Positions 1,208-46,042 of a stretch of 46,318 nucleotides of DNA are shown in pieces (within the stretch, counting starts at the first letter, position 1; each line of letters starts with the position of its first letter). The notes below the pieces were generated by a model, which saw only the letters and a program-made list of their open reading frames with translations, did no database searches and was not told the origin of the DNA. Made by a program: the position numbers and the translations under genes. The DNA lies in the IMG/VR virus record IMGVR_UViG_3300028534_000016, positions 92,152-138,469 of that record, one strand, 5' to 3'. This DNA comes from a virus.

Positions 1208-3391
1208 ATGAGTTTATTCGTAAACGCAAGTCCACAAGTTATTAATCTTGGTGTTCATGATTTATCTACAAGAGTAGTTACTCCTGAGCCTATTGAGATT
1301 CCGCAACATTTACCTAAAGCATACTTCTATGCTAGAAAAGGTACAACAATTCCTACGCCTAACGTTGGCGCTCCAATGTTATTGATGTATGGAACAGAAA
1401 CATTTGATAAAGATAGCAAATATTACAACCATTCAACTAGATTTATTACTGGTTTTGCTGGTGCAGCAAATACTATTATGTTACAACGTGTGATTCCTGA
1501 TGACGCTAACCCTGAATCTAATATAACTATCTACTTAGATGTATTAGCTACAGATGTCCCTAACTATTTAAGAAATAGTGATGGTTCGTATGTTATTGAT
1601 CCTGCTACAAATGATTATGCTGTAGATGCAGACAATCCTACTATTCCTGGATATAAATATAAGATTATCGAAGAAGTACAAGTAGGCACTGAAGTAGGTG
1701 AAGCATTTATTCGTAACGGTATGACTATCGGTGCTGCTAGAACTAAATCAGGAACTATGTCTGATGCTGATGGAAACAGATCTATTATGTATCCAATTGT
1801 TGATTTAAAAGCAAAATATAAAGGCGAGTTTTATAATAATATAGGTATCGCTATTGGTAGTATGTCTGATGATGAAGTACAAAGAGATATTATCGAAGCT
1901 ACTAAATCATTACCTTATAAATTAGCACTTGTTGAAAGAGAAGATACTGATAGTAAGTATGTTGTTAAACCATCACTTTATGGCGAACCAAATGTACAGT
2001 TCACATTTAAAGAAGGCGCAATTAATCCTCTTACTAAAGCTAGATTTGATTTAGAAACAGTTTTCTTACAAAACTGGTATAATGAAACAGATCCACTTCT
2101 TCCGTTAGAATATGAGGATTATGAAAAATTATATGTTTATACGAATTATTTAGATAGAGTTTTAACAATGCTAATCGAAAAAGAAGCACCTCATATTACT
2201 AATGATCCTGAAGTATGGAATGACGGTAATGATGCTGCTACTTCTTCATGGTTTGATTTCTTAACAGCAGATGCTGACCTTACTGCTGAAGAAAGATATA
2301 TCTTTAACTTCTTAACTGGTAAATCTACAAAAGGTGTTAACTTCTTTACATTTGTTAGAAGTGATGATACTCCTAATACAACTCCTGAACAACAAGAGAT
2401 TACTATGTCATTAACTACACCAGTATTCCTTAAAGGTGGTTCTGATGGTAGTTTAACTAGTGATATGTTCAATACTCTTGTTGAAAGAGAACTAGCTAAG
2501 TATCTAGACACAGATAGTGAAGTTATGGATAATGCAATCAACGTTGAATCAGTAATGTATGATTCTGGATTCCCTTTAAACACTAAAGAAGAAATTTGTA
2601 ACTTTATCGCTGTACGTAAAGATACTGCTGTAGCATTATCTACGCATGATGCTTCTCTCGGAGAATCATTCTTACCACTTTCTGATGAAAGAGCTATTGC
2701 GGTAGCACTTAAAAACAGATTAAAATTAACACCTGAATCTGATTACTTCGGAACAAGTGTCGCTAGAGGTATTGTTGTTGCTGGTACCGGTCTGCTTGCA
2801 GATAATACTACGAGAGATAGAATTCCGTTACTATATTCAATTGCTATTAAATCAGCTAAGTTTATGGGTGCAGGTAATGGTAAATGGAATGGTGTATATG
2901 CATTCGATAGAGCGCCAGGTAACATTATTACTGAATTGGTAGATATTGAACCATCATTTATTCCTGCTGGTATTAAACCAACACTATGGAATGACGGAAT
3001 TGTATGGGCACAACCATATGATAGAAGACAATACCATTTCCCTGCTATCCAAACAGTATATGATGATGATACATCAGTACTTAATAGCTGGTTTACAGTT
3101 ATTGCGGTATGTACTGTTACTAAGATTGCTGATAATGCTTGGAGAAACTTTACTGGAGCAACAGACCTTACTGAAGCACAATTATCAGATGCTATCGTAG
3201 CATATGTTAATAAAGCAACTAAAAATATCTTTGATGGTAGAATTGTTGTAGTTCCAGAAGTAGTATTTACAGAAGCAGATAAAGAACGTGGTTATAGTTG
3301 GAAGCTTATAAATAAATTATACGCAAATAACATGAGAAGTGTTATGGTTTATGAAACTGCTGTTTATAGAATGTCAGATTTAGAACAGTAA
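1208..3391 (+). CDS. Tail sheath protein (phiKZ gp29-like)
   Basis: 727 aa, AAAGGA RBS. Motifs NASPQVINLG.HDLS, IPQHLP, GGSDG, YDSGF, PESDYFGT, FPAIQTVYDDDTSVL, YANNM. Followed by the tube gene. Confidence 0.9.
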   Translation: MSLFVNASPQVINLGVHDLSTRVVTPEPIEIPQHLPKAYFYARKGTTIPTPNVGAPMLLMYGTETFDKDSKYYNHSTRFITGFAGAANTIMLQRVIPDDANPESNITIYLDVLATDVPNYLRNSDGSYVIDPATNDYAVDADNPTIPGYKYKIIEEVQVGTEVGEAFIRNGMTIGAARTKSGTMSDADGNRSIMYPIVDLKAKYKGEFYNNIGIAIGSMSDDEVQRDIIEATKSLPYKLALVEREDTDSKYVVKPSLYGEPNVQFTFKEGAINPLTKARFDLETVFLQNWYNETDPLLPLEYEDYEKLYVYTNYLDRVLTMLIEKEAPHITNDPEVWNDGNDAATSSWFDFLTADADLTAEERYIFNFLTGKSTKGVNFFTFVRSDDTPNTTPEQQEITMSLTTPVFLKGGSDGSLTSDMFNTLVERELAKYLDTDSEVMDNAINVESVMYDSGFPLNTKEEICNFIAVRKDTAVALSTHDASLGESFLPLSDERAIAVALKNRLKLTPESDYFGTSVARGIVVAGTGLLADNTTRDRIPLLYSIAIKSAKFMGAGNGKWNGVYAFDRAPGNIITELVDIEPSFIPAGIKPTLWNDGIVWAQPYDRRQYHFPAIQTVYDDDTSVLNSWFTVIAVCTVTKIADNAWRNFTGATDLTEAQLSDAIVAYVNKATKNIFDGRIVVVPEVVFTEADKERGYSWKLINKLYANNMRSVMVYETAVYRMSDLEQ

Positions 3392-3489: not shown

Positions 3490-4362
3490 ATGGCTACAAT
3501 TGCTGATGCTATTTTAAACAAAGAAGAAGTCTATGCTGGTCATTCACCAGCCCTTAACTTACGTTATGGCGGACAAAACGGATACTTTGCTAAGATTGGT
3601 AGAGTTGGTCCTGATGGTAAAAACGTTGAAGAATGGATCTCTAACCAAGCTTACGTACAACGTAATATCATTCCTGTGGTATTAAGAGCACCTAAGTTTC
3701 TTAACTACATGCCTGAACCACAAAAATGGATTGATACATATAAAGCACTTATCGAGCTACACCCATTAACTATTACTGGTTTAACTTCTGGTCTTACAGT
3801 TGAGACTGATGAACACGCTATTGGTGGTGCTGGTGAGATGCAAGAAGAGATTACTGATGTAAAAAGAGCACGCTCTACAGTCAGTACTACATATAAAGAG
3901 AAAGCTGGTAAAGCTATTATCAAATTCCTAGATTATCTTATTAGATATGGTATGATGGATCCTGATACTAAGAAACCTTTAGTAGCTAACTTTATGGAAA
4001 ACATCGAAGATATTGGTGGTATGTATACTGCTGACTTCTATACTGGTACAGTATTGTTTATCGAACCAGACGTTACACAGAAAATTGTTGTTGATGCTTG
4101 GTTAACTACTAACTTCTTCCCTAAATCAAATGGTGAAAGAACTGGTAAACGTGATATTCATAGTGCCGGTGAAGCTCCTGAACTAAGTATCGAATGGGCT
4201 GGTATCACTATGAATAATGAAGCTGTTATGAATATGGCAGATACTATCCTACAGAACTTAACTGTTATTAACACTCTTCCGGATGTCGGCATGGTGACAC
4301 CTCAGTCAGAAATTGACCCAAATGTTGCAGCCAGTGAAAATGTTGGCTATAATGAACATTAA
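3490..4362 (+). CDS. Tail tube protein (phiKZ gp30-like)
   Basis: 290 aa after the sheath. Motifs YGGQNG, WISNQAYVQRN, GGAGEMQE, MMDPDTK, LFIEPD, NFFPKS.G. Confidence 0.88.
   Translation: MATIADAILNKEEVYAGHSPALNLRYGGQNGYFAKIGRVGPDGKNVEEWISNQAYVQRNIIPVVLRAPKFLNYMPEPQKWIDTYKALIELHPLTITGLTSGLTVETDEHAIGGAGEMQEEITDVKRARSTVSTTYKEKAGKAIIKFLDYLIRYGMMDPDTKKPLVANFMENIEDIGGMYTADFYTGTVLFIEPDVTQKIVVDAWLTTNFFPKSNGERTGKRDIHSAGEAPELSIEWAGITMNNEAVMNMADTILQNLTVINTLPDVGMVTPQSEIDPNVAASENVGYNEH
4288..4334 (+). repeat. 47-bp direct repeat, copy 1 (inside the 3' end of the tail tube gene)
   Basis: GGCATGGTGACACCTCAGTCAGAAATTGACCCAAATGTTGCAGCCAG, identical to 6015-6061. Confidence 0.97.
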
Positions 4363-4400: not shown

Positions 4401-5980
4401 TATATAAATTTTTTATAATTATGTATTGTAGTATTACCTGGTAAATTAAGATCTCTACACATATCAAGAAAAGTTTTATAATATGTCCCCTTAACATTAA
4501 ATTTATAAAAACGTTTAATTTGTTTTTCAAGATATTCTTCTAGTATATTGTATTTAATGTATGGTATGCGTATTAAATGTATATTATTAAATGTAGCTAA
4601 TGTATTTTTTTCTTTATCTCTTTTTCTTGTTTTTTTAAATTCGTCCTTACCGCCAAAAAATGATCTTGGTTTGAAATGTTGGATACCGTCATACTCTATA
4701 AGTATATTGAGTTCTGGTAAATAGAAATCATATCTATAGTTATAACCAGGTATTTTATATTCACGAATATGCGATATGTTGTGTTTTTTTAGATATTTTA
4801 ATATTTTTTCTTCTCCTTTAGAAATACTACATTGCGAACAACCATTTCCAGTTAGATGGCTAGTAGCTGTTTGTTCAAAGTCGCCATGTTTAGGACAAGT
4901 TATAACTACTATATTTTTACTCAATGTATACATTGTTTTATTGTAGTCGTATTTATTTCCGTGTATTTTTCTGGCTTTCTCTATAAACTGATCCGTAGAT
5001 AAGGTATTTTTAATTATAGCGCATTTTAAACAGTTTCCGCGAATATGACTATTTGGTGTTTGTTTGAATTCTCCGTGTATCGGACAAATGATAGTAACTG
5101 GTATTTTGCTATTAATATAATTAACTTTACTATAATCGTACATACTGCCATGTACTTTTTTAGAGGCAGTAATAAATTTTTTCATATTTATATATCGTTC
5201 GTTATCTCTATAACATCGCATACAGCCGATGTTTGATAAATGTATTCTTGGTAATTGTTCGAAGTCGCCATGTACCGGACAGGTTATACGTATTGGAGTA
5301 TTGCTTCCCATATATTTTACATTGTCATACTTATATTTATTACCGTGTACATTTTTAGCTTTCTCTATAAATTGTTCAGTAGTGAATGTTCTTTTCATAA
5401 CACTACATTTATAACAACCACTACTTGTTAAATGTTCACTTGGTATTTGTTCAAAATCACCATGAACTGGACATGTTATAGTTATTTTTGTTCGCATATT
5501 TATGTATTTAGTTTTACTATAACTATATTTATCTCCGTGAGCTTTTCTAGATTTCTGTACGAATTCTTCTTTCGTAGTTCTTTTCGTATCGGCGACCGAT
5601 ATTCTTCCGCATATAATACATCCGCGACCACTTAAATGATCGTTAGGTGTTTGTTCAAAAACTCCGTGCTTTTTACAAATTATCTTTAATGGTATTCTAC
5701 TAAGCACGTATTCGGATAAAGAATAATCATATTTATCGCCGTGTATTTGTTCGGCTTTCTTTATGAATTGATTTGTAGTCACTCGGTCATTATTAATTCT
5801 GCATTCATTACACGCACTCCCTGCTAAATGTCTATTGACTCGTTTTTTATATTCGCCGTGCATCGGGCATATTATTGTTATATCCTTATTCTTATATACT
5901 CTGTCTGTTGATGGTTGTATGTATTTATATTTATTATTATACATCTTATTAGCAATATTTAAAAAATCTTTAAAATTCAA
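4400..5980 (-). CDS. Free-standing putative homing endonuclease: six zinc-binding repeats (DUF723-like) plus C-terminal Vsr/DUF559-like nuclease
   Basis: TTG start with AAGGA. Six CxxHG...H...CxxC units (CPMHG, CKKHG, CPVHG, CPVHG, CPIHG, CPKHG). C-terminal SKGE...YRYDFYLP..NILIEYDG.QHF...RDKEKN...LIRI. Confidence 0.82.
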   Translation of the reverse strand: MNFKDFLNIANKMYNNKYKYIQPSTDRVYKNKDITIICPMHGEYKKRVNRHLAGSACNECRINNDRVTTNQFIKKAEQIHGDKYDYSLSEYVLSRIPLKIICKKHGVFEQTPNDHLSGRGCIICGRISVADTKRTTKEEFVQKSRKAHGDKYSYSKTKYINMRTKITITCPVHGDFEQIPSEHLTSSGCYKCSVMKRTFTTEQFIEKAKNVHGNKYKYDNVKYMGSNTPIRITCPVHGDFEQLPRIHLSNIGCMRCYRDNERYINMKKFITASKKVHGSMYDYSKVNYINSKIPVTIICPIHGEFKQTPNSHIRGNCLKCAIIKNTLSTDQFIEKARKIHGNKYDYNKTMYTLSKNIVVITCPKHGDFEQTATSHLTGNGCSQCSISKGEEKILKYLKKHNISHIREYKIPGYNYRYDFYLPELNILIEYDGIQHFKPRSFFGGKDEFKKTRKRDKEKNTLATFNNIHLIRIPYIKYNILEEYLEKQIKRFYKFNVKGTYYKTFLDMCRDLNLPGNTTIHNYKKFI

Positions 5981-6014
5981 AAATTCATCCTTTAGTCGAT
6001 ATAATCAATTAAAT

Positions 6015-6089
6015 GGCATGGTGACACCTCAGTCAGAAATTGACCCAAATGTTGCAGCCAGCAATTCAGGGTATAACGAACAAGCTTAA
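6015..6089 (+). pseudogene. Second copy of the tail tube 3' end (47-bp repeat copy 2 plus variant C-terminus)
   Basis: Reads GMVTPQSEIDPNVAASNSGYNEQA*, versus GMVTPQSEIDPNVAASENVGYNEH* in the intact gene. Confidence 0.85.
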
Positions 6090-6110
6090 GTAAAAAAAAA
6101 ATAGATAATA

Positions 6111-6144
6111 TATACTACCTAGTCTTATAAGACTAGGTAGTATA
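6111..6144. terminator. Perfect 34-bp palindrome, probable terminator
   Basis: TATACTACCTAGTCTTA/TAAGACTAGGTAGTATA, with an A-run on the left that reads as a U-tract on the minus strand. Confidence 0.75.
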
Positions 6145-6219
6145 GTTACTATTATTTTAGGATATGGATATAGCAATAACACTCAGCTATTGTGTTAATA
6201 CTATGTTAGGTTAGGTATG

Positions 6220-6325
6220 TGCTCTAGGTTGGAGTTGAACCAACTAAATACCTCGTTACAATCATAATGTATTCTACAGTGATACACTATGAATTCACTC
6301 AGTCTATCCGATTTTCATCTAGAGC
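6220..6325 (-). ncRNA. Atypical tRNA-like RNA (class II-like, 12-nt anticodon loop, no encoded CCA)
   Basis: Minus strand: acceptor GCTCTAG/CTAGAGC+A, T-arm GTTGG-TTCAACT-CCAAC, D-loop-like AATCGGATAGAC, stem AGTGA/TCACT, variable arm AATAC/GTATT. Confidence 0.6.
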
Positions 6326-6332
6326 ATAGATT

Positions 6333-6435
6333 GTAGTCAGGACATTGGTTAGCGCACCTATCCTGTGCTGTCCTGACTACTAAATATATAACCTAGATAT
6401 TGGTTAGCGCACCTATCCTGTGCTGTCTAGGTTAT
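6333..6435. ncRNA. Two tandem hairpins with an identical 24-nt loop and different 12-bp stems
   Basis: GTAGTCAGGACA-[TTGGTTAGCGCACCTATCCTGTGC]-TGTCCTGACTAC (6333-6380) and ATAACCTAGATA-[same loop]-TGTCTAGGTTAT (6388-6435). Confidence 0.65.
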
Positions 6436-6439
6436 GATA

Positions 6440-6745
6440 ATAATTCGGTTTTCGAATACCAGACATACTACAGCGAGATCTACAAGCAAGAATATGCACG
6501 GTATCAATATAGTGTATTCAGATTGACTCGCTACGCCAACCCCGCTTACCCATAAAATCAAGGGCAGCTGCTCATAGTCGCCTATGAGATTTGTTCACTC
6601 GATTCGCTTGAATCTACTAAAGGAACACGACAAAACTTATATGTATAAGGTCGTAAACGGGACTAGGATATCTCCAACAATACAACGCATCCCGTGACGC
6701 AGTATTTTACAGACATATCCTGAAGCGCATGCAGCACTAAAAGTT
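6440..6745 (-). ncRNA. Putative ~300-nt structured non-coding RNA of unknown family
   Basis: No ORF, higher GC than the flanks. Minus-strand helices: CTCATAG-GCGA-CTATGAG, GCGTC-ACGG-GATGC, AGGATAT/ATATCCT, ACGAC/GTCGT, GATTC/GAATC, TAGCGAG/CTCGCTG. Confidence 0.5.
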
Positions 6746-6763
6746 AAATTAACTTACCTACGC

Positions 6764-7186
6764 CTACGAAAGTAGTGTAGCAGTCATCTCTTTAGTAAGG
6801 TCTTGAATCTTAGACTTACTAACTTTAGTAAGCGGATCTTTAACTGTTACACCAAGAGTAGACTTAGTTACTTCAGTGCCATCAGCAGGCGATTTAAATG
6901 TTTGTGAGCGTTTAGCAACAACATTCACTTGTCCGCGTTTAGATACACCATATGGGTATTCTACAACTACTTTATCGATGTCTTTATCTTCAGACATGAT
7001 TTTAGTAGATTGTTCTGCAGCAGCTTTAGTAGCTTCTTCAATATAAGAATGTGCATGGTCGAACACTTCTTTAATTACTTTCTTAGAAAGTTCTGTACCT
7101 TCGTAGAATGCATTTTCATCGTTATACTTTACAGTAGCGATTCCTTCTGTTTTACTTACTTCAAATTTTCCAGCATCGATTGCCAT
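6764..7186 (-). CDS. Hypothetical protein (140 aa), probably early-expressed
   Basis: ATG with AAGGA RBS, uninterrupted ORF, downstream of an early-promoter-like motif. Confidence 0.8.
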   Translation of the reverse strand: MAIDAGKFEVSKTEGIATVKYNDENAFYEGTELSKKVIKEVFDHAHSYIEEATKAAAEQSTKIMSEDKDIDKVVVEYPYGVSKRGQVNVVAKRSQTFKSPADGTEVTKSTLGVTVKDPLTKVSKSKIQDLTKEMTATLLS

Positions 7187-7279
7187 TGTTGTTTCCTTGT
7201 TCTTTTTTTATAATGTTAATACCATATAGGTACACCTCATATACTAATGCATTAGCACACCTTCGATTTCATGTATGCT

Positions 7280-7392
7280 GACCATAAGACACCCGCAGTC
7301 TTAACAGGAGTAACCATTTGGGATAAAGGTTATTTAAGAATACGTCGAAACACCAGTAACAGTTCATTTGTATCAAGCAGGTGTCTATGGTC
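7280..7392 (-). ncRNA. Structured leader or small RNA closed by a long terminal stem
   Basis: Minus-strand GACCATA-GACACCTGC pairs with GCGGGTGTCTTATGGTC (one bulge, one G-U). A second hairpin AGCATAC/GTGTGCT follows. Confidence 0.55.
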
Positions 7393-7398
7393 TACTTA

Positions 7399-7410
7399 AA
7401 TAATATATGT
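7399..7410 (-). promoter_or_regulatory. Candidate early promoter ACATATATTATT
   Basis: Identical 12-mer at 42937-42948. Resembles the phiKZ early motif TATATTAC. Confidence 0.45.
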
Positions 7411-7476
7411 TTAAATTTTTTTAAGAATCACTATTTCTGATATCTTAATTGATATTAAAAAATATAAGGAGATATC

Positions 7477-8703
7477 ATGGCTATCGTTGAGAGCGCTATA
7501 GATGTAGGCACCATATCTACATTAACAAGTTTGGATTTAAGCAGGGTATCAGAAGAAGGTACAGTTAATACAGACACAACTAAGAAGATAGTTACTAATA
7601 AAGATGGTTCTGTAAGAGTAGAGGCATTAGCACCAAAAATAACAAATGATTTAAAAACACTAGGTACTGCAAATGCTATAAATACTAATGATATTAGTAA
7701 TGTAGACAATAGTATTTTTTCAGATATTAAAGTACCTGAACCAAGCATAGGTGATAAACTAATAGGTTTATTTACTCCTAGTACAGATTGTAATACTAAA
7801 GCACCTAGTAAGTATAGATCAACATATAGTAAAAGCAGCAATAATAGAAGTTTAAAGAAAGTTAATCACAATTGTGACCAATACGGTAATCCAGTAACAG
7901 ATGTTATTGTTGGACTAAAAGATTACTCTGCTAAAGAAGATATATTAAATGCTTTTAACGAACCAAAAGTAGATAGCGCTATATCAGATACACTTAAAAC
8001 TTCCTTTAAAGATATTAATAGTTATACTGACCCTAGTAAAGTAGTTTCTGCCACAAAGTCTAACCTATTAAAATTAACACAACAAGGTGGGAGTACACTT
8101 AAAGCAAAAAGCATACTTAATGATGCGCTAACTTTATGTAAGAGTAAAAATAGTCTTAACTTAAATACTAGTAGTTTATTTGATTTATCATATATTAAAT
8201 CTTTATTAGAAAATATTGCTTGTGATTTAGATAATGCTTTACATAATGTGTTAGTATCGGTTATTGGTATTGACCCCACACAAAGCACATCAGCATTACA
8301 AGCAGTAACTAGTATACTCGGCGATAGCAATAATAAAAGCGTTATAGGTAATTTAGGTGTAATACAAGAATTACGAGCAGATGTAGGTGGGGCAAAAGCT
8401 ACTGCTATTACAAAAACTAAATTTAGTAGTATTTTAAAGGGAATAGATAGAGATGAATCTAAGACTGCTAATGCTACAGAAACTAATGATGTTATTTTAA
8501 CTAGTTTAGACACCATAGACCCTACTTGGGATAGAGATGAATTAGGTAATGTTAACTACTTTAAACTTAACGGTAACGATAAAGTATGTAGTACTTCACA
8601 AACAGCATTATTAGATAATTATGGAACAACTCCTTCAGATGGAACTGTTACCGTACAATTAGATAGAACACAAAGCATATCAGTAATGAGTGCATTCGCA
8701 TAA
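7477..8703 (+). CDS. Hypothetical protein, possibly virion/baseplate-associated
   Basis: 408 aa, AAGGAG RBS, LDTIDPTW motif near the C-terminus, located among structural genes. Confidence 0.55.
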   Translation: MAIVESAIDVGTISTLTSLDLSRVSEEGTVNTDTTKKIVTNKDGSVRVEALAPKITNDLKTLGTANAINTNDISNVDNSIFSDIKVPEPSIGDKLIGLFTPSTDCNTKAPSKYRSTYSKSSNNRSLKKVNHNCDQYGNPVTDVIVGLKDYSAKEDILNAFNEPKVDSAISDTLKTSFKDINSYTDPSKVVSATKSNLLKLTQQGGSTLKAKSILNDALTLCKSKNSLNLNTSSLFDLSYIKSLLENIACDLDNALHNVLVSVIGIDPTQSTSALQAVTSILGDSNNKSVIGNLGVIQELRADVGGAKATAITKTKFSSILKGIDRDESKTANATETNDVILTSLDTIDPTWDRDELGNVNYFKLNGNDKVCSTSQTALLDNYGTTPSDGTVTVQLDRTQSISVMSAFA

Positions 8704-18700: not shown

Positions 18701-19957
18701 CGTAATGTTCGATATGTATCGCTACTACACATCCGTGGTCTTACCACTGCTCTAGCTTTCACTAGAGACCAGACTATATCTTCACCCACTATATACATAG
18801 CTAGGGTGTCTACCATTTCGATTTAAGGGATTCTCACCCACCTGCTTAGGCCCTACTCCTGTTGCTCTATTATTTATTGTTGGTGAGCCAAGGGATAGTC
18901 GTTGAACACATACCATACTGTAGTTACAGGTTAGATACTTCGCTGCGTCGGTTGCCCAATCTCTATAGGTTTTTACTATGCTCCTTACCACTATTACGGC
19001 CGGAGTATTACAGTCTATTTCTAGCTGTAAGTAGTACTATAGAGCTCTAAGGGGTTTCCCGCAATTAGATAGATATTGACATACATTACTGTATGAAAGA
19101 TCACATGTTATTTATAAATCAAATATTGCTTAACATCTTTTGGTTTAATATTACCTGGTAAATGTTCACCTTTACACAATTCTAAGAAATTACGATACCA
19201 CTTATTATTAACACAATATTTAAAATATCTTGATATTCTGAATAACAAATATTTTTTAATATTATTAATTTCCGTATACTTAATACGTATAAGCTTATAT
19301 CCTTTTTCTTTAGCTATCTTATTTTTTGTTTTATCGCGTTTTTGAATATTTAATAATTCTTTTTCTCCGCCCCACGCAGTCACTGGTTCAAAATGTTGTC
19401 TACCATCATACTCTATGAGTATGTTAAGATCAGGTAAATAGAAATCATATCTAAATTTAGTATTGCTATCAGGAATATTATACTCTCGTTTAAAAGATAT
19501 ATTTAAATCATTAAGTAGTTTAGCTATTTTTAATTCACCTTTAGATAGTTTGCATATAGGACAACCAGTTTTATTTGCAATATGGTTATTGGGCTTAACT
19601 TTAAAATCTCCATGTATAGGACAAGTAATTATTACTTTATTTTTAGAACCAGTATAGTTAATATTATTGTAATCATACTTATTCTTGTGTTTATTTTTAG
19701 CTTTTTTAATAAATATTTCTTTTTTTAATAACATATAGCATTTTAAACATCCTTTATTAAGGTGTGTTTTAGCAATTTGTTTAAACATACCGTGTACTGG
19801 ACATAATATATCTATTTTTTCTTTATAATGATCTAAATTTTTATCATTATTAATGAAATATTTATATTTATTATTGTGTATTTTATTTGCAATATTTATA
19901 AATTTATAACCTAACATAATGTACTTCTTGATTTAATTTCAATAAAGCACAAAATTT
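18701..19957 (-). mobile_element. Group I intron (1257 nt) with homing endonuclease ORF in the P1 loop
   Basis: 5' exon ends in U, intron ends in G. Core elements AATTGCGGGAA, GACGCAGCG, GTTCAACGACTA, AAGATATAGTCT. Guide GATCTTT (19096-19102) pairs with exon GGAGATT with a U-G at the splice site. Confidence 0.92.
19108..19917 (-). CDS. Intron-encoded homing endonuclease (two zinc repeats plus Vsr/DUF559-like nuclease)
   Basis: CPVHG and CPIHG repeats, SKGE...FRYDFYLP..NILIEYDG.QHF...RDKTKN. Paralogous to 4400-5980. Confidence 0.85.
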   Translation of the reverse strand: MLGYKFINIANKIHNNKYKYFINNDKNLDHYKEKIDILCPVHGMFKQIAKTHLNKGCLKCYMLLKKEIFIKKAKNKHKNKYDYNNINYTGSKNKVIITCPIHGDFKVKPNNHIANKTGCPICKLSKGELKIAKLLNDLNISFKREYNIPDSNTKFRYDFYLPDLNILIEYDGRQHFEPVTAWGGEKELLNIQKRDKTKNKIAKEKGYKLIRIKYTEINNIKKYLLFRISRYFKYCVNNKWYRNFLELCKGEHLPGNIKPKDVKQYLIYK

Positions 19958-44155: not shown

Positions 44156-44635
44156 CAAAATCTTCAGTATGTATCGCTACTACATACCCGTCTGTATTTC
44201 ACAGACTGCTTAACCATTACAGTTAACGACTACAGTATTTCTGTAGAAGGGACTATTGTCCGTTGAGACTATATCTTCATCCCTAGTTCATATATTTGAA
44301 CTAGTAGGATGTTTACTGTTTCGATTTAAGGGATTCTCACCCACCTGCTTAGGCCCTACTCCCATAAGGGATAGTCGTTGAACTCACACACTCCATATAG
44401 GATAGCTCTCGCTGTTTAAGGTGCTTCGCTGCGTCGGTTCCGCCCAGGTTATAGAGTTTTTACCTCAGTATTCCTACGGATACTTCCGTACGGATTACCA
44501 TGCTACACACTTCCATTACTGGGTGTAGTATTACAGTCTGTTTCCAGCTGTAAGTGGTATCTATAACTTTTAACAGGGGTTCCCGCAATTAAATAAATAC
44601 ATTTCTACCTATTACTAGATAGAATAGACCATTCG
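44156..44635 (-). mobile_element. ORF-less group I intron (480 nt)
   Basis: Core AATTGCGGGAA, GACGCAGCG, GTTCAACGACTA, AAGATATAGTCT. P1 AGAT|C-GAAT-GGTCT with U-G at the splice site. 3' end GAAGATTTTG aligns with intron 1 GAACATTACG. Confidence 0.88.
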
Positions 44636-46042
44636 ATCTTTAAAGATACTTGTGATTTTAGGGTACATAATGTCAGTAGGTGTATCAGCCATATTCATAG
44701 TCAAGTTCATAGCGGAACTCTTTACTATGCCATATATTCTTTTAGCAGTTAAACTATTAGCGAATACAGATACTATTTCTTTTTCACTAAGAACTTTCTT
44801 ATTGAATTTCTTATTGATATCAAATAATGATTTATTAATACCATAAATGATATCATATAGGATATAGTAAAGAATATCCACATATCTATTGCTAATATCA
44901 CTATTATACTCTTTACTGTTGATTAACCAAGTATTGAATCTACTCAATATGACTGCCATTAAATCAAATACGGTTTTAACATCTACACCTATCTCTTTTA
45001 ACTTACGAATAATCAAGTTATCCATATAGTTTTGTAATGTACCAAAATGATTAGTCATTTCAGACATAATCTTGTCAATACTATATCCATTTCTGAATAT
45101 AACTTTACCTAATACAATACGCCAATAGATTACTTCGTCTTTAACATCATGGTTATCTAACAGTGTTATGAAGTCATTAACAATATCAGGCATTACATCA
45201 AAAGTATATATGATACCAAATATGAAGTTATCTAAAAATGATTTATTGCTTTCGTTTACTTCATCTTTAGGAATAAGTATCTTTAAATCATGACCTACAT
45301 AATACGTCTCTTTACTATTTCTAGGTTTAAGTTTAGTACTTTCATAAACATGGTACATGTCTCTGTAATGATCTACATTATCTAGAGTCACTTTAACATT
45401 CTTGACATTAGCATATTTCTCTAAACTCTTTTTGAACCCATACATGCCTAATAGATATAAACTAACAGCAGGATATGCTAAACCTAAATTATCTTGTATC
45501 TTTCTACCGGCTAGTCTATATGTGTTACTATAGATAACTTGTCCGTCTCTTTTCTCTCCGTCTATGATAAAGTTTCTCTGGTATCTACTGAACGTTAACT
45601 TATCCTTAAGTAACCTTACAAAGATTTCTTTATTACTAGGAGAGATAACTGTATCTGATAATATAGGTACTATGTTATAAATAGTATCTGATATTTTGAT
45701 TAAGTTACCTCTATCAGCATATGGTAAATACACAAATCTAGGTATAGGCGTTCCTCTATATACGAAACGCAACTCTATCATGTAGAGATCACTTACTGCT
45801 AAATCATATAACGTTTTCTTATCAGGAGAAGTAAAGAGTTTATCGAACTCTTCTTTAGGTGTTAGTTTACGCCAACCATGGTATTCTAAACCTGTGTGTT
45901 GCATGTTATTAACAGAAGTAGTTATTATCTCATCAAGATACTCTGGTGCTGTTTTAAGTATTTTCTTAGCAGCTCCTTCTGTTACATTCTTATTGAACTT
46001 AGGTGTGTTGTTGTCAAGTACTCGCGCTAGTACATCGTTCAT
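44636..46042 (-). CDS. Non-virion RNA polymerase beta subunit N-terminal part (phiKZ gp123-like), exon 1
   Basis: NTPKFN..V..G, YDLA.SD.Y, YLPY..RGN...IS, P.LSD.VIS, IFVRLL.DKLTF. 469 codons ending KITSIFKD. Spliced product 568 aa. Confidence 0.8.

Follow-up and report, generated by a model that had tools for sequence, protein, structure and literature searches.

An anticodon-less tRNA mimic in an optional non-coding island downstream of a conserved gene of a phiKZ-like jumbo phage

We identified a tRNA-like element under strong constraint in a non-coding island of a phiKZ-like jumbo phage of the nucleus-forming type. The element lies downstream of a conserved gene for a 140-aa protein and could direct the processing of a longer RNA into smaller ones. 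Judging from sequence, we consider it somewhat probable (roughly 0.55) that the locus forms one early transcription unit, in which tRNA-processing enzymes cleave the 3′UTR island at the tRNA mimic. The locus is part of a 46,318-nt stretch of DNA (the window) from a 138-kb record covering 53% of the genome. On the minus strand, it runs from a promoter motif through a 5′ stem-loop, the 140-aa gene and ~660 nt of non-coding RNA to a bidirectional terminator:

7391..7411, minus strand: phage promoter-like motif AACATATATTATTTAAGTAGA, recurrent, early-type by analogy
7285..7390, minus strand: 5′-terminal long stem-loop of the leader, basal stem conserved and interior variable
6764..7186, minus strand: conserved gene for the 140-aa protein, with an AAGGAA ribosome-binding site upstream
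6437..6763, minus strand: island part A, ~330 nt of non-coding RNA with several local hairpins
6388..6435, minus strand: twin hairpin 1, a 10-bp stem bearing the 27-nt unit CAGCACAGGAUAGGUGCGCUAACCAAU (z -3.5)
6333..6380, minus strand: twin hairpin 2, an unrelated 12-bp stem bearing the same 27-nt unit (z -5.5)
6220..6325, minus strand: anticodon-less tRNA mimic with covariation, G+1 at 6325 and discriminator A at 6220
6170..6204, minus strand: spacer hairpin between mimic and terminator, from a consensus fold with the relative L012
6096..6144, both strands: bidirectional intrinsic terminator, a 15-bp palindromic stem (6144-6111) with T-tracts on both strands

All the features listed in an initial annotation of this DNA were recovered where it had placed them. 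The ~850 nt of GC-richer non-coding DNA that it described correspond to about 210 and 660 nt, with a GC content of 0.38-0.43 compared with 0.30 genome-wide. Its statement that no named RNA family is recognizable also holds, as Rfam scans at gathering thresholds and at a permissive cutoff (E<=10) gave no credible match for the region, nor for three related loci. Because two group I introns found by the permissive scan escaped the whole-window gathering scan, this negative result rests on the permissive scan. The catalytic core model of group I introns (RF00028) had no match at E<=10 in 5900-7600; the same model detects five such introns elsewhere in this genome, which is rich in mobile introns. 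A search of the phage record collection returned no DNA or protein match to the locus. Nor did we find hidden coding capacity in the island: its longest frame (44 aa) is altered and cut short in L012, and no ORF is conserved.

The mimic comprises a 7-bp acceptor stem, a conserved D-loop-like strand (AUGAAAAUCGGAUAG), a variable central hairpin and a T-arm, which reads GUUGG-UUCAACU-CCAAC in the window. Seven distinct versions were found, in phages with 140-aa proteins that share 64-94% identity with that of the window. In the acceptor and T stems pairing reaches 96%, and sliding the partners lowers it to 21-51%; compensatory change is seen at 5 pairs. For the acceptor stem alone, the figures are 8 pairs, 95% paired, 4 of them with compensatory change. 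Against the closest relative, L012, the mimic has accumulated 0/109 substitutions, compared with 31/141 (22%) at third codon positions (p=4e-9). The tRNA-like RNA of the initial annotation is thus borne out both by this constraint and by covariation around homologues of the 140-aa gene. The T-arm has the 5-bp stem, G53-C61 pair and UUCRANY loop of tRNAs, and the pair and the loop sequence UUCRANU are invariant. The GG of the D-loop-like strand is present in 7/8 rows and absent from the L018 version. Position -1 is a U in 7/8, the base preferred by RNase P. The acceptor and T stems can stack into a coaxial 12-bp minihelix with a T-loop inside a longer predicted transcript, as in t-elements.

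The decoding half is missing. No D-stem can be drawn and each lineage has a central hairpin of its own length and sequence, so that the mimic has neither a D-stem nor a 5-bp anticodon stem with a 7-nt loop. ARAGORN called no tRNA or tmRNA gene at the element, elsewhere in the window or genome, or at these sites in relatives, and the Rfam tRNA (RF00005) and tmRNA models did not match the mimic at E<=10. A covariance model built on the mimic (R1) matches solely the orthologous sites in 8 loci (E 1e-13 to 1e-20), with no second copy elsewhere in this genome, and a pattern scan of viral contigs found no match.

Several observations suggest that the locus is a single transcription unit, as the initial annotation had proposed. 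The AACATATATTATTTAAGTAGA motif occurs in ~12 copies in the 138-kb record, every copy upstream of a gene, and is kept upstream of the homologous 140-aa gene in relatives, including L008, L014 and L018. The early promoters used by the virion RNA polymerase of jumbo phages are marked by conserved AT-rich motifs, and AACATATATTATTTAAGTAGA fits the definition of such motifs (AT-rich, conserved, ~10 nt, repeated upstream of operons; PMC7598289). By analogy, we regard it as an early-type promoter. At the other end, the palindromic terminator with its U-tract, likewise noted at the outset, is well defined (fold z -5.7; compensatory pair 6132/6123) and is common to the end of the convergent tail-tube gene. 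Because it is the only strong terminator and sits at the end of the island, one unit probably extends from the promoter to this point. The minus strand is probably the RNA strand, because 13 one-sided changes between the window and L012 stay paired as G-U and four pairs are fully compensated.

The other parts of the unit differ in how well they are defined as folds. In the leader, a basal stem of ~16 bp is present in both the MFE and the centroid folds and is retained in L012 by compensatory changes, while the interior is replaced or expanded there (43% divergence plus indels) and the stem-loop as a whole is not significantly stable (z -1.6). The 113-nt long-stem RNA of the initial annotation therefore stands for its basal stem and not for its interior. 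Similarly, the ~300-nt multi-helix stretch, our part A, is indeed non-coding and diverges slowly from L012 (9.6%, compared with 22% at third codon positions; p=5e-4), with compensatory pairs 6713/6673 and 6613/6602 in two of its local hairpins, but as a whole it is not significantly stable (z -1.55). The twin hairpins carry an identical 27-nt loop, expected 0 times by chance, on significantly stable stems, as had been noticed, and hairpin 1 has a compensatory pair (6428/6395); they are real yet lineage-specific. For such lineage-specific parts, the comparison is between two sequences, the window and L012. The spacer hairpin has one-sided changes only against L012 and is weakly supported. Of the ‘four distinct structured RNAs’ originally proposed, support is thus good for the tRNA mimic and for the twin hairpins, whereas the 5′ stem and the ~300-nt part are weak as defined folds.

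The island varies greatly among relatives. In roughly half of the phages that share this gene, among them L008, L013, L016, L021 and L035, it is followed by the terminator alone and no island; the remaining phages carry three different island types. The only module common to the islands is the tRNA mimic, and a stable hairpin always lies 7-11 nt upstream of its G+1 in all three types. Sister islands contain an invariant anti-Shine-Dalgarno-like ACCUCCUU. L033 and L034 encode an identical 140-aa protein, yet L033 has just one module, and homing endonuclease genes are inserted at the same site. As the island is absent from five relatives and its modules vary under an identical protein, we read it as optional cargo with rapid turnover, occupying a hot spot for insertions where two convergent genes meet.

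On the reading that we favour, a phage-specific promoter would yield an mRNA with a protective stem-loop at its 5′ end, followed by the 140-aa reading frame and an accessory 3′UTR of ~660 nt up to the shared bidirectional terminator. The mimic probably recruits host tRNA-cutting enzymes: host RNase P would cleave between U-1 and G+1, and 3′ tRNA-processing enzymes would trim the other side. This would leave the upstream RNA (mRNA, part A and twin hairpins) with a protective hairpin at its end, and the freed product would be a stable tRNA-shaped RNA of ~105 nt. Some observations fit this scheme less well. A processing signal alone leaves unexplained both the conservation of a 15-nt single strand (GAUGAAAAU.GGAUA) and the dispensability of the mimic in half of the relatives. 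The L018 version without GG in its D-loop-like strand also counts against the scheme, as does the stability of part A and of the 5′ stem interior, which is no higher than that of shuffled sequence. None of the mimic versions encodes a CCA end, a further point against it, and no gene for a CCA-adding enzyme was found in the 138-kb record.

There are precedents for such an arrangement. In plant mitochondria, tRNA-like t-elements set mRNA ends via RNase P and RNase Z (PMC1920247). These t-elements and, by the same principle, the mascRNA-type elements of MALAT1/NEAT1 are also non-decoding tRNA-like folds within a longer transcript, whose ends tRNA-processing enzymes define with their help (PMC1920247; PMC12941219). 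The mimic further resembles t-elements in lying downstream of a coding region and being preceded by a stabilizing structure. Unlike either class, it is a phage element, has no sequence relation to them and is likened to them by its predicted fold; it also differs in its conserved D-loop-like single strand and variable central hairpin. The tRNA-like domain of tmRNA combines a 7-bp acceptor and a canonical T-arm with a D-loop-like strand that forms no D-stem, and an unrelated helix replaces its anticodon arm. The mimic is built in the same way, with UUCAACU as its T-loop in the window, but lacks the G3-U70 alanine identity pair: its third acceptor pair is U-A, A-U or C-G, and U-A in the G-G-U version. 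At ~105 nt, it also lacks a tag reading frame and pseudoknots, and it was negative with ARAGORN and the Rfam tmRNA models.

Among phage RNAs, parallels are ncRNA1/2 of PAK_P3 and 3'UTR_PHIKZ298 of phiKZ, described in the transcriptomic account of them as abundant small RNAs processed from the 3′UTRs of upstream phage genes; the part of that account concerned with them reports no tRNA-like module (PMC10914365). In our search of the phage record collection, the locus had no sequence similarity to these RNAs. Like the mimic, YrlA-type Y RNAs retain the acceptor/T-arm part of a tRNA, its top half, but no anticodon arm. They differ in that their acceptor stem is closed by a loop and they have a Ro60 partner, whereas the acceptor stem of the mimic is open-ended; a TROVE gene is absent from the 138-kb record and no Rfam YrlA match was found at the locus. 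GOLLD and ROOL are ornate phage non-coding RNAs of several hundred nucleotides, often found beside tRNA genes. The island differs from them in having no Rfam match at E<=10 and in its modular content, which varies between close relatives.

An alternative is that the chief role of the mimic, and perhaps of the rest of the modules, is to serve as a decoy or sponge for a putative host tRNA-binding factor, with processing serving only for release. Factors that might be bound in this way include a defence nuclease, a modification or processing enzyme and a translation factor. Constraint on the single-stranded segment as well as on the helices suggests a specific protein or RNA partner, and the patchy, accessory distribution of the mimic is that of usual counter-defence cargo. 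The early-type assignment of the promoter, made by analogy, would suit such a role, and ACCUCCUU in the sister islands hints at mimicry of RNAs of the translation machinery. We nevertheless consider this reading unlikely, since the mimic has no anticodon loop to draw anticodon nucleases, its central hairpin is not conserved, the 138-kb record has no Ro60/TROVE gene, and the twin-hairpin loop has no complement in the phage genome beyond 10-nt chance matches. A broader version holds that the islands are interchangeable cassettes of RNAs mimicking the host translation apparatus, made early and titrating host factors or RNA-targeting defences. It is speculative and, in our view, rather improbable. 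All island types contain a tRNA top half, and the sister type has the 16S anti-Shine-Dalgarno-like sequence. If this holds, phages would exchange the islands much as they exchange anti-defence genes, as cargo made of RNA alone that serves host takeover or counter-defence. A functionless origin, with the island as decaying debris of a phage tRNA cluster, an intron or mobile DNA at an insertion hot spot, would fit the lineage-dependent content, a presence that varies even under an identical protein, the homing endonuclease genes at the same site, the insignificant structure of part A and of the 5′ stem interior, and a genome rich in mobile introns. It is hard to reconcile with an entire 3′ island diverging at less than half the third-codon-position rate (p=6e-6), with an unchanged mimic, with compensatory changes in several helices and with persistence of the same mimic down to 64% identity of the 140-aa proteins. 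We think it a poor explanation overall, and for the tRNA mimic it is disfavoured.

RNA anti-CRISPRs and viral crRNA-like mini-arrays occur in phages (PMC10651486; 10.1101/2024.10.29.618823), and the twin hairpins could in principle be mimics of CRISPR repeats, serving as an RNA anti-CRISPR or as a mini-array that hijacks host Cas proteins. They share with Racr and crRNA-like mini-arrays a phage genome context and tandem identical units of ~28 nt, with a stem-loop inside every unit (PMC10651486). Their two identical 27-29-nt units recur with a 55-nt period (‘repeat’ 29 nt, ‘spacer’ 26 nt), each consisting of a short stem-loop and then a ~9-nt tail. Copy 1 in L012 has a 5+5+5+5+8-nt layout with a GUAUA loop, which we take to resemble the 28-nt repeats of type I-F. 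Here, however, the units stand as the loops of closing stems and the ‘spacer’ is made of two half-stems that close the hairpins, a layout that is not known from arrays. An exact scan for CACNNNATAGGTGCGCTAA across 185,579 species genomes, one genome per species, gave 13 scattered single matches, none in CRISPR arrays or tRNA genes, and a scan of viral contigs gave one match, in a microvirus, which we judged to be chance; diverged repeats would escape such a pattern. We consider CRISPR mimicry very unlikely.

The initial annotation raised the possibility of a dedicated ribonucleoprotein made up of the RNAs and the 140-aa protein, which their predicted co-transcription and a weak HU/IHF-type resemblance of the protein (Foldseek E about 0.1; Z 4.2) might favour. 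The reading frame is a real conserved gene, with 27 close homologues and 201 representatives at E<=1e-3. Pfam and PHROGs gave no match for the protein; distant members of its family touch only phrog_9746, which has no assigned function, and no homologue was detectable by sequence in phiKZ itself. Its AlphaFold2 model (pLDDT 85) matched only uncharacterized proteins of phiKZ-like phages in BFVD, and a search of the PDB yielded no clear fold, with HU/IHF and pilin-like matches at noise level and no clear nucleic-acid-binding fold. By residue count the protein is not basic. Many phages with the conserved protein, including the five island-free relatives, have no island, and island content shifts while the protein stays unchanged, which makes a dedicated ribonucleoprotein very unlikely. 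Pairing between the island and the ribosome-binding site of its own gene extends over only 6 nt, at chance level.

Little is yet charted of the non-coding RNAs that jumbo phages make; all that a 2026 review states of them is that phiKZ “expresses non-coding RNAs”. The locus described here is a compact and testable case, in which a strongly constrained tRNA mimic without decoding parts is found in swappable, putative 3′UTR cassettes of a conserved gene, and the covariance model R1 offers a handle to find further members in metagenomes. If RNase P cuts at the mimic, phages would shape their messages by a tRNA-punctuation logic known from organelles and MALAT1. If the released RNAs bind host factors, they would represent a new kind of RNA cargo in the conflict between phage and host.

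The locus belongs to the final 46 kb of an IMG/VR record of 138 kb (estimated completeness, 53%; genome G+C, 30%). The adjoining 714-aa virion protein has matches in ~300 phiKZ-like jumbo phages at ~31% identity, and in relatives a phiKZ gp29-type sheath gene and a tail-tube gene adjoin the locus. Re-reading the sequence confirmed that all features listed in the initial annotation are present on the minus strand. These, with the gene directly past the terminator, are:

7411–7391, minus strand, 21-nt promoter-like motif
7390–7285, minus strand, leader stem-loop (5′ long stem)
7186–6764, minus strand, 140-aa ORF
6763–6437, minus strand, part A of the non-coding island
6435–6388 and 6380–6333, minus strand, twin hairpins
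6325–6220, minus strand, tRNA mimic
6144–6111, bidirectional terminator
5980–4400, minus strand, HNH/DUF723 endonuclease gene

The promoter-like ACATATATTATT is part of the 21-nt motif, of which ~12 copies occur in the record with ≤4 mismatches allowed, every one a short way 5′ of a gene. The recurrent form across the whole record is (A/C)CATATATTATT(T/A)AA(G/A)TAGA; nearly all copies are on the minus strand, 15–40 nt before start codons and often with a short hairpin directly after, a succession that suggests, at the level of sequence, 5′-hairpin-capped early transcripts. Distant relatives also keep the motif 5′ of their homologue of the 140-aa gene. In RNAP-encoding jumbo phages, the AT-rich motifs that bioinformatics can pick out proved to be the early promoters used by the virion RNA polymerase, and promoters of the middle and late classes escape such prediction (PMC7598289). 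We therefore reasonably infer by analogy, rather than report as a result, that the window motif is an ‘early-type’ promoter.

The family searches proposed in the initial annotation left the non-coding RNA without a match: Rfam returned zero at the gathering score or at E ≤ 10, and ARAGORN found neither a tRNA nor a tmRNA. For group I introns the Rfam negative is meaningful, since the same model detects five elsewhere in the genome; a fast whole-window gathering scan missed two of these, and a permissive scan recovered both. The two window introns, at 18750–19126 (minus strand, 85.2 bits) and 44247–44643 (minus strand, 49.4 bits, slightly below the cut-off of 50), occupy the remaining GC-rich ‘non-coding’ gaps, between same-strand ORFs. 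Three more lie upstream of the window in the same genome at 70–89 bits (L026 7145–7475; L027 13269–13620 and 13827–14198), so the 138-kb record holds at least five.

The 3′ stretch of 671 nt forms a much more stable fold than its shuffles (z = −7.75, 20 shuffles). The terminator (z = −5.7), the twin hairpins (z = −3.5 for the first, −5.5 for the second) and the tRNA-like element (z = −3.2) account for most of that signal; neither part A (330 nt, z = −1.55) nor the 5′ long stem (z = −1.6) is significant alone. Comparison with the closest relative, L012, whose protein is 94% identical and which is alignable over the whole region, revealed divergence of 22% at third codon positions, 9.6% in part A (Fisher test versus third positions, p = 5e-4), 11.7% in the twin hairpins, 6.6–9.3% in the spacer and terminator, and 0/109 in the tRNA-like element (p = 4e-9). 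The 5′ stem interior differs by 43% plus indels. A joint consensus fold contains four fully compensated pairs (6713/6673, 6613/6602, 6428/6395 and 6132/6123) and zero broken pairs, the latter in part a product of the method. Thirteen one-sided changes preserve pairing as G-U when the RNA is read from the minus strand, so that minus must be the functional strand. None of the island's reading frames is conserved between the two phages.

Following another proposed check, we gathered ~25 loci from related phages (L numbers) around homologues of the 140-aa protein. The 140-aa gene is convergent with the tail-tube gene in every locus, and the intervening region is variable.

Content between the 140-aa gene and the tail-tube gene
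No island: L008/L007 (protein identity 73%), L013, L016, L021, L035; 41–81 nt, terminator only
Type A with tRNA mimic, version 1: window, L012; 660–680 nt
Type A with tRNA mimic, different version: L009, L034; ~600 nt
Type B with tRNA mimic (third kind): L014/15, L018, L031, L032; ~470–520 nt
Other content: L019; 235 nt of unrelated sequence
Other content: L023; small ORF and DUF723 endonuclease, 1711–3000
Other content: L033; protein exactly that of L034, only the last module of the L034 island kept

L008 and L009 have nearly identical terminators and differ by a clean ~590-nt insertion from stop codon to terminator. Together with the variable content and the adjoining endonuclease gene, this indicates that the site is a hot spot at which islands behave as accessory cargo. 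DUF723/HNH-type homing endonuclease genes are found there in two different phages (window and L023). Type B islands carry an invariant ACCTCCTT (L014 ~3700–3720 and aligned sites in L018, L031 and L032), resembling the anti-Shine-Dalgarno end of 16S rRNA, and an invariant GCGTTTAATA block, both within otherwise diverged sequence; on the opposite strand, no ORF follows the RBS-like complement of ACCTCCTT. In L013, ARAGORN called a 90-nt tRNA-Met (3605–3694, plus strand) antisense within the tail-tube gene, probably a false positive.

BLAST, followed by a covariance model (R1), recovered one element, the tRNA mimic, common to all three island types; there was no other match at E < 0.8 in 200 kb. 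Its acceptor stem is 7 bp long, optionally extended by an eighth pair (U-A). The single strand reads GAUGAAAAU.GGAUA, the central hairpin is different in each lineage, G53-C61 and the loop UUCRANU are invariant in the T-arm, the discriminator is A, and CCA is not encoded. Covariation analysis, also envisaged at the outset, identified five pairs with compensatory changes among eight rows, and 96% of cells in the two helices are paired, versus 21–51% with partners slid. Because it lacks both a D-stem and a conserved anticodon arm, it is a mimic rather than a tRNA proper. A D-stem is likewise missing from the tRNA-like domain of tmRNA, but the mimic has neither the G3-U70 pair nor a tag. A stable hairpin stands 7–11 nt 5′ of G+1 in each island type: in the window this is twin hairpin 2, type B has a covarying hairpin of 11 bp, and L009 has nested hairpins. 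L009 (~974–1058) and L033 (~2965–3049) also carry a further tRNA-like element, 85 nt long and built in the same way, with 6/7 acceptor positions paired and a T-arm ACTAG-TTCRATT-CTAGT; it is the sole module retained in L033. We found no Rfam family, annotated record or describing paper for the tRNA mimic, and class it among tRNA-like processing elements or phage 3′UTR-derived ncRNAs, both known kinds.

The twin hairpins share a 27-nt unit, a small GCAC/GUGC hairpin with a ~10-nt tail, present in two exact copies in the window and enclosed by unrelated 10-bp and 12-bp stems. It occurs only in the window and L012, where copy 1 has drifted with one stem pair compensated. To test whether the unit could be a CRISPR-repeat mimic, we searched for its exact pattern in one genome per species and obtained 13 isolated matches, 0 arrays and 0 in tRNA genes; the one viral match, in a microvirus, is by chance. 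The phage genome contains nothing notable complementary to the loop. The initial annotation raised an RNP of the island RNAs with the 140-aa protein. That protein has 27 close homologues in metagenomes and 201 cluster representatives in a profile search, with no Pfam or PHROG family match. Its AlphaFold2 model is confident (pLDDT 85) and matches only uncharacterised phiKZ-like phage proteins in BFVD and nothing convincing in the PDB (Foldseek E ≥ 0.1, Z ≤ 5.4). As it is conserved in phages without an island, an obligatory RNP is unlikely. No Ro60 or CCA-adding enzyme gene was found in the 138-kb record (~53% of the genome).

The evidence best supports a reading in which one early mRNA begins with a protective stem-loop and has an accessory 3′UTR punctuated by a tRNA top-half mimic. 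RNase P would cleave at the mimic, leaving the upstream RNA with a stable hairpin as its end and freeing a tRNA-shaped RNA. The minimal RNase P substrate is an acceptor/T minihelix, and U at −1 is its preferred leader base. Plant mitochondrial t-elements follow the same logic (PMC1920247), and Pseudomonas phages, phiKZ among them, have processed 3′UTR RNAs (PMC10914365). This processed-3′UTR reading leaves room for the released RNAs to act as decoys or sponges, because constraint on the single-stranded block of the tRNA mimic is very strong and the distribution of islands is patchy and cargo-like.
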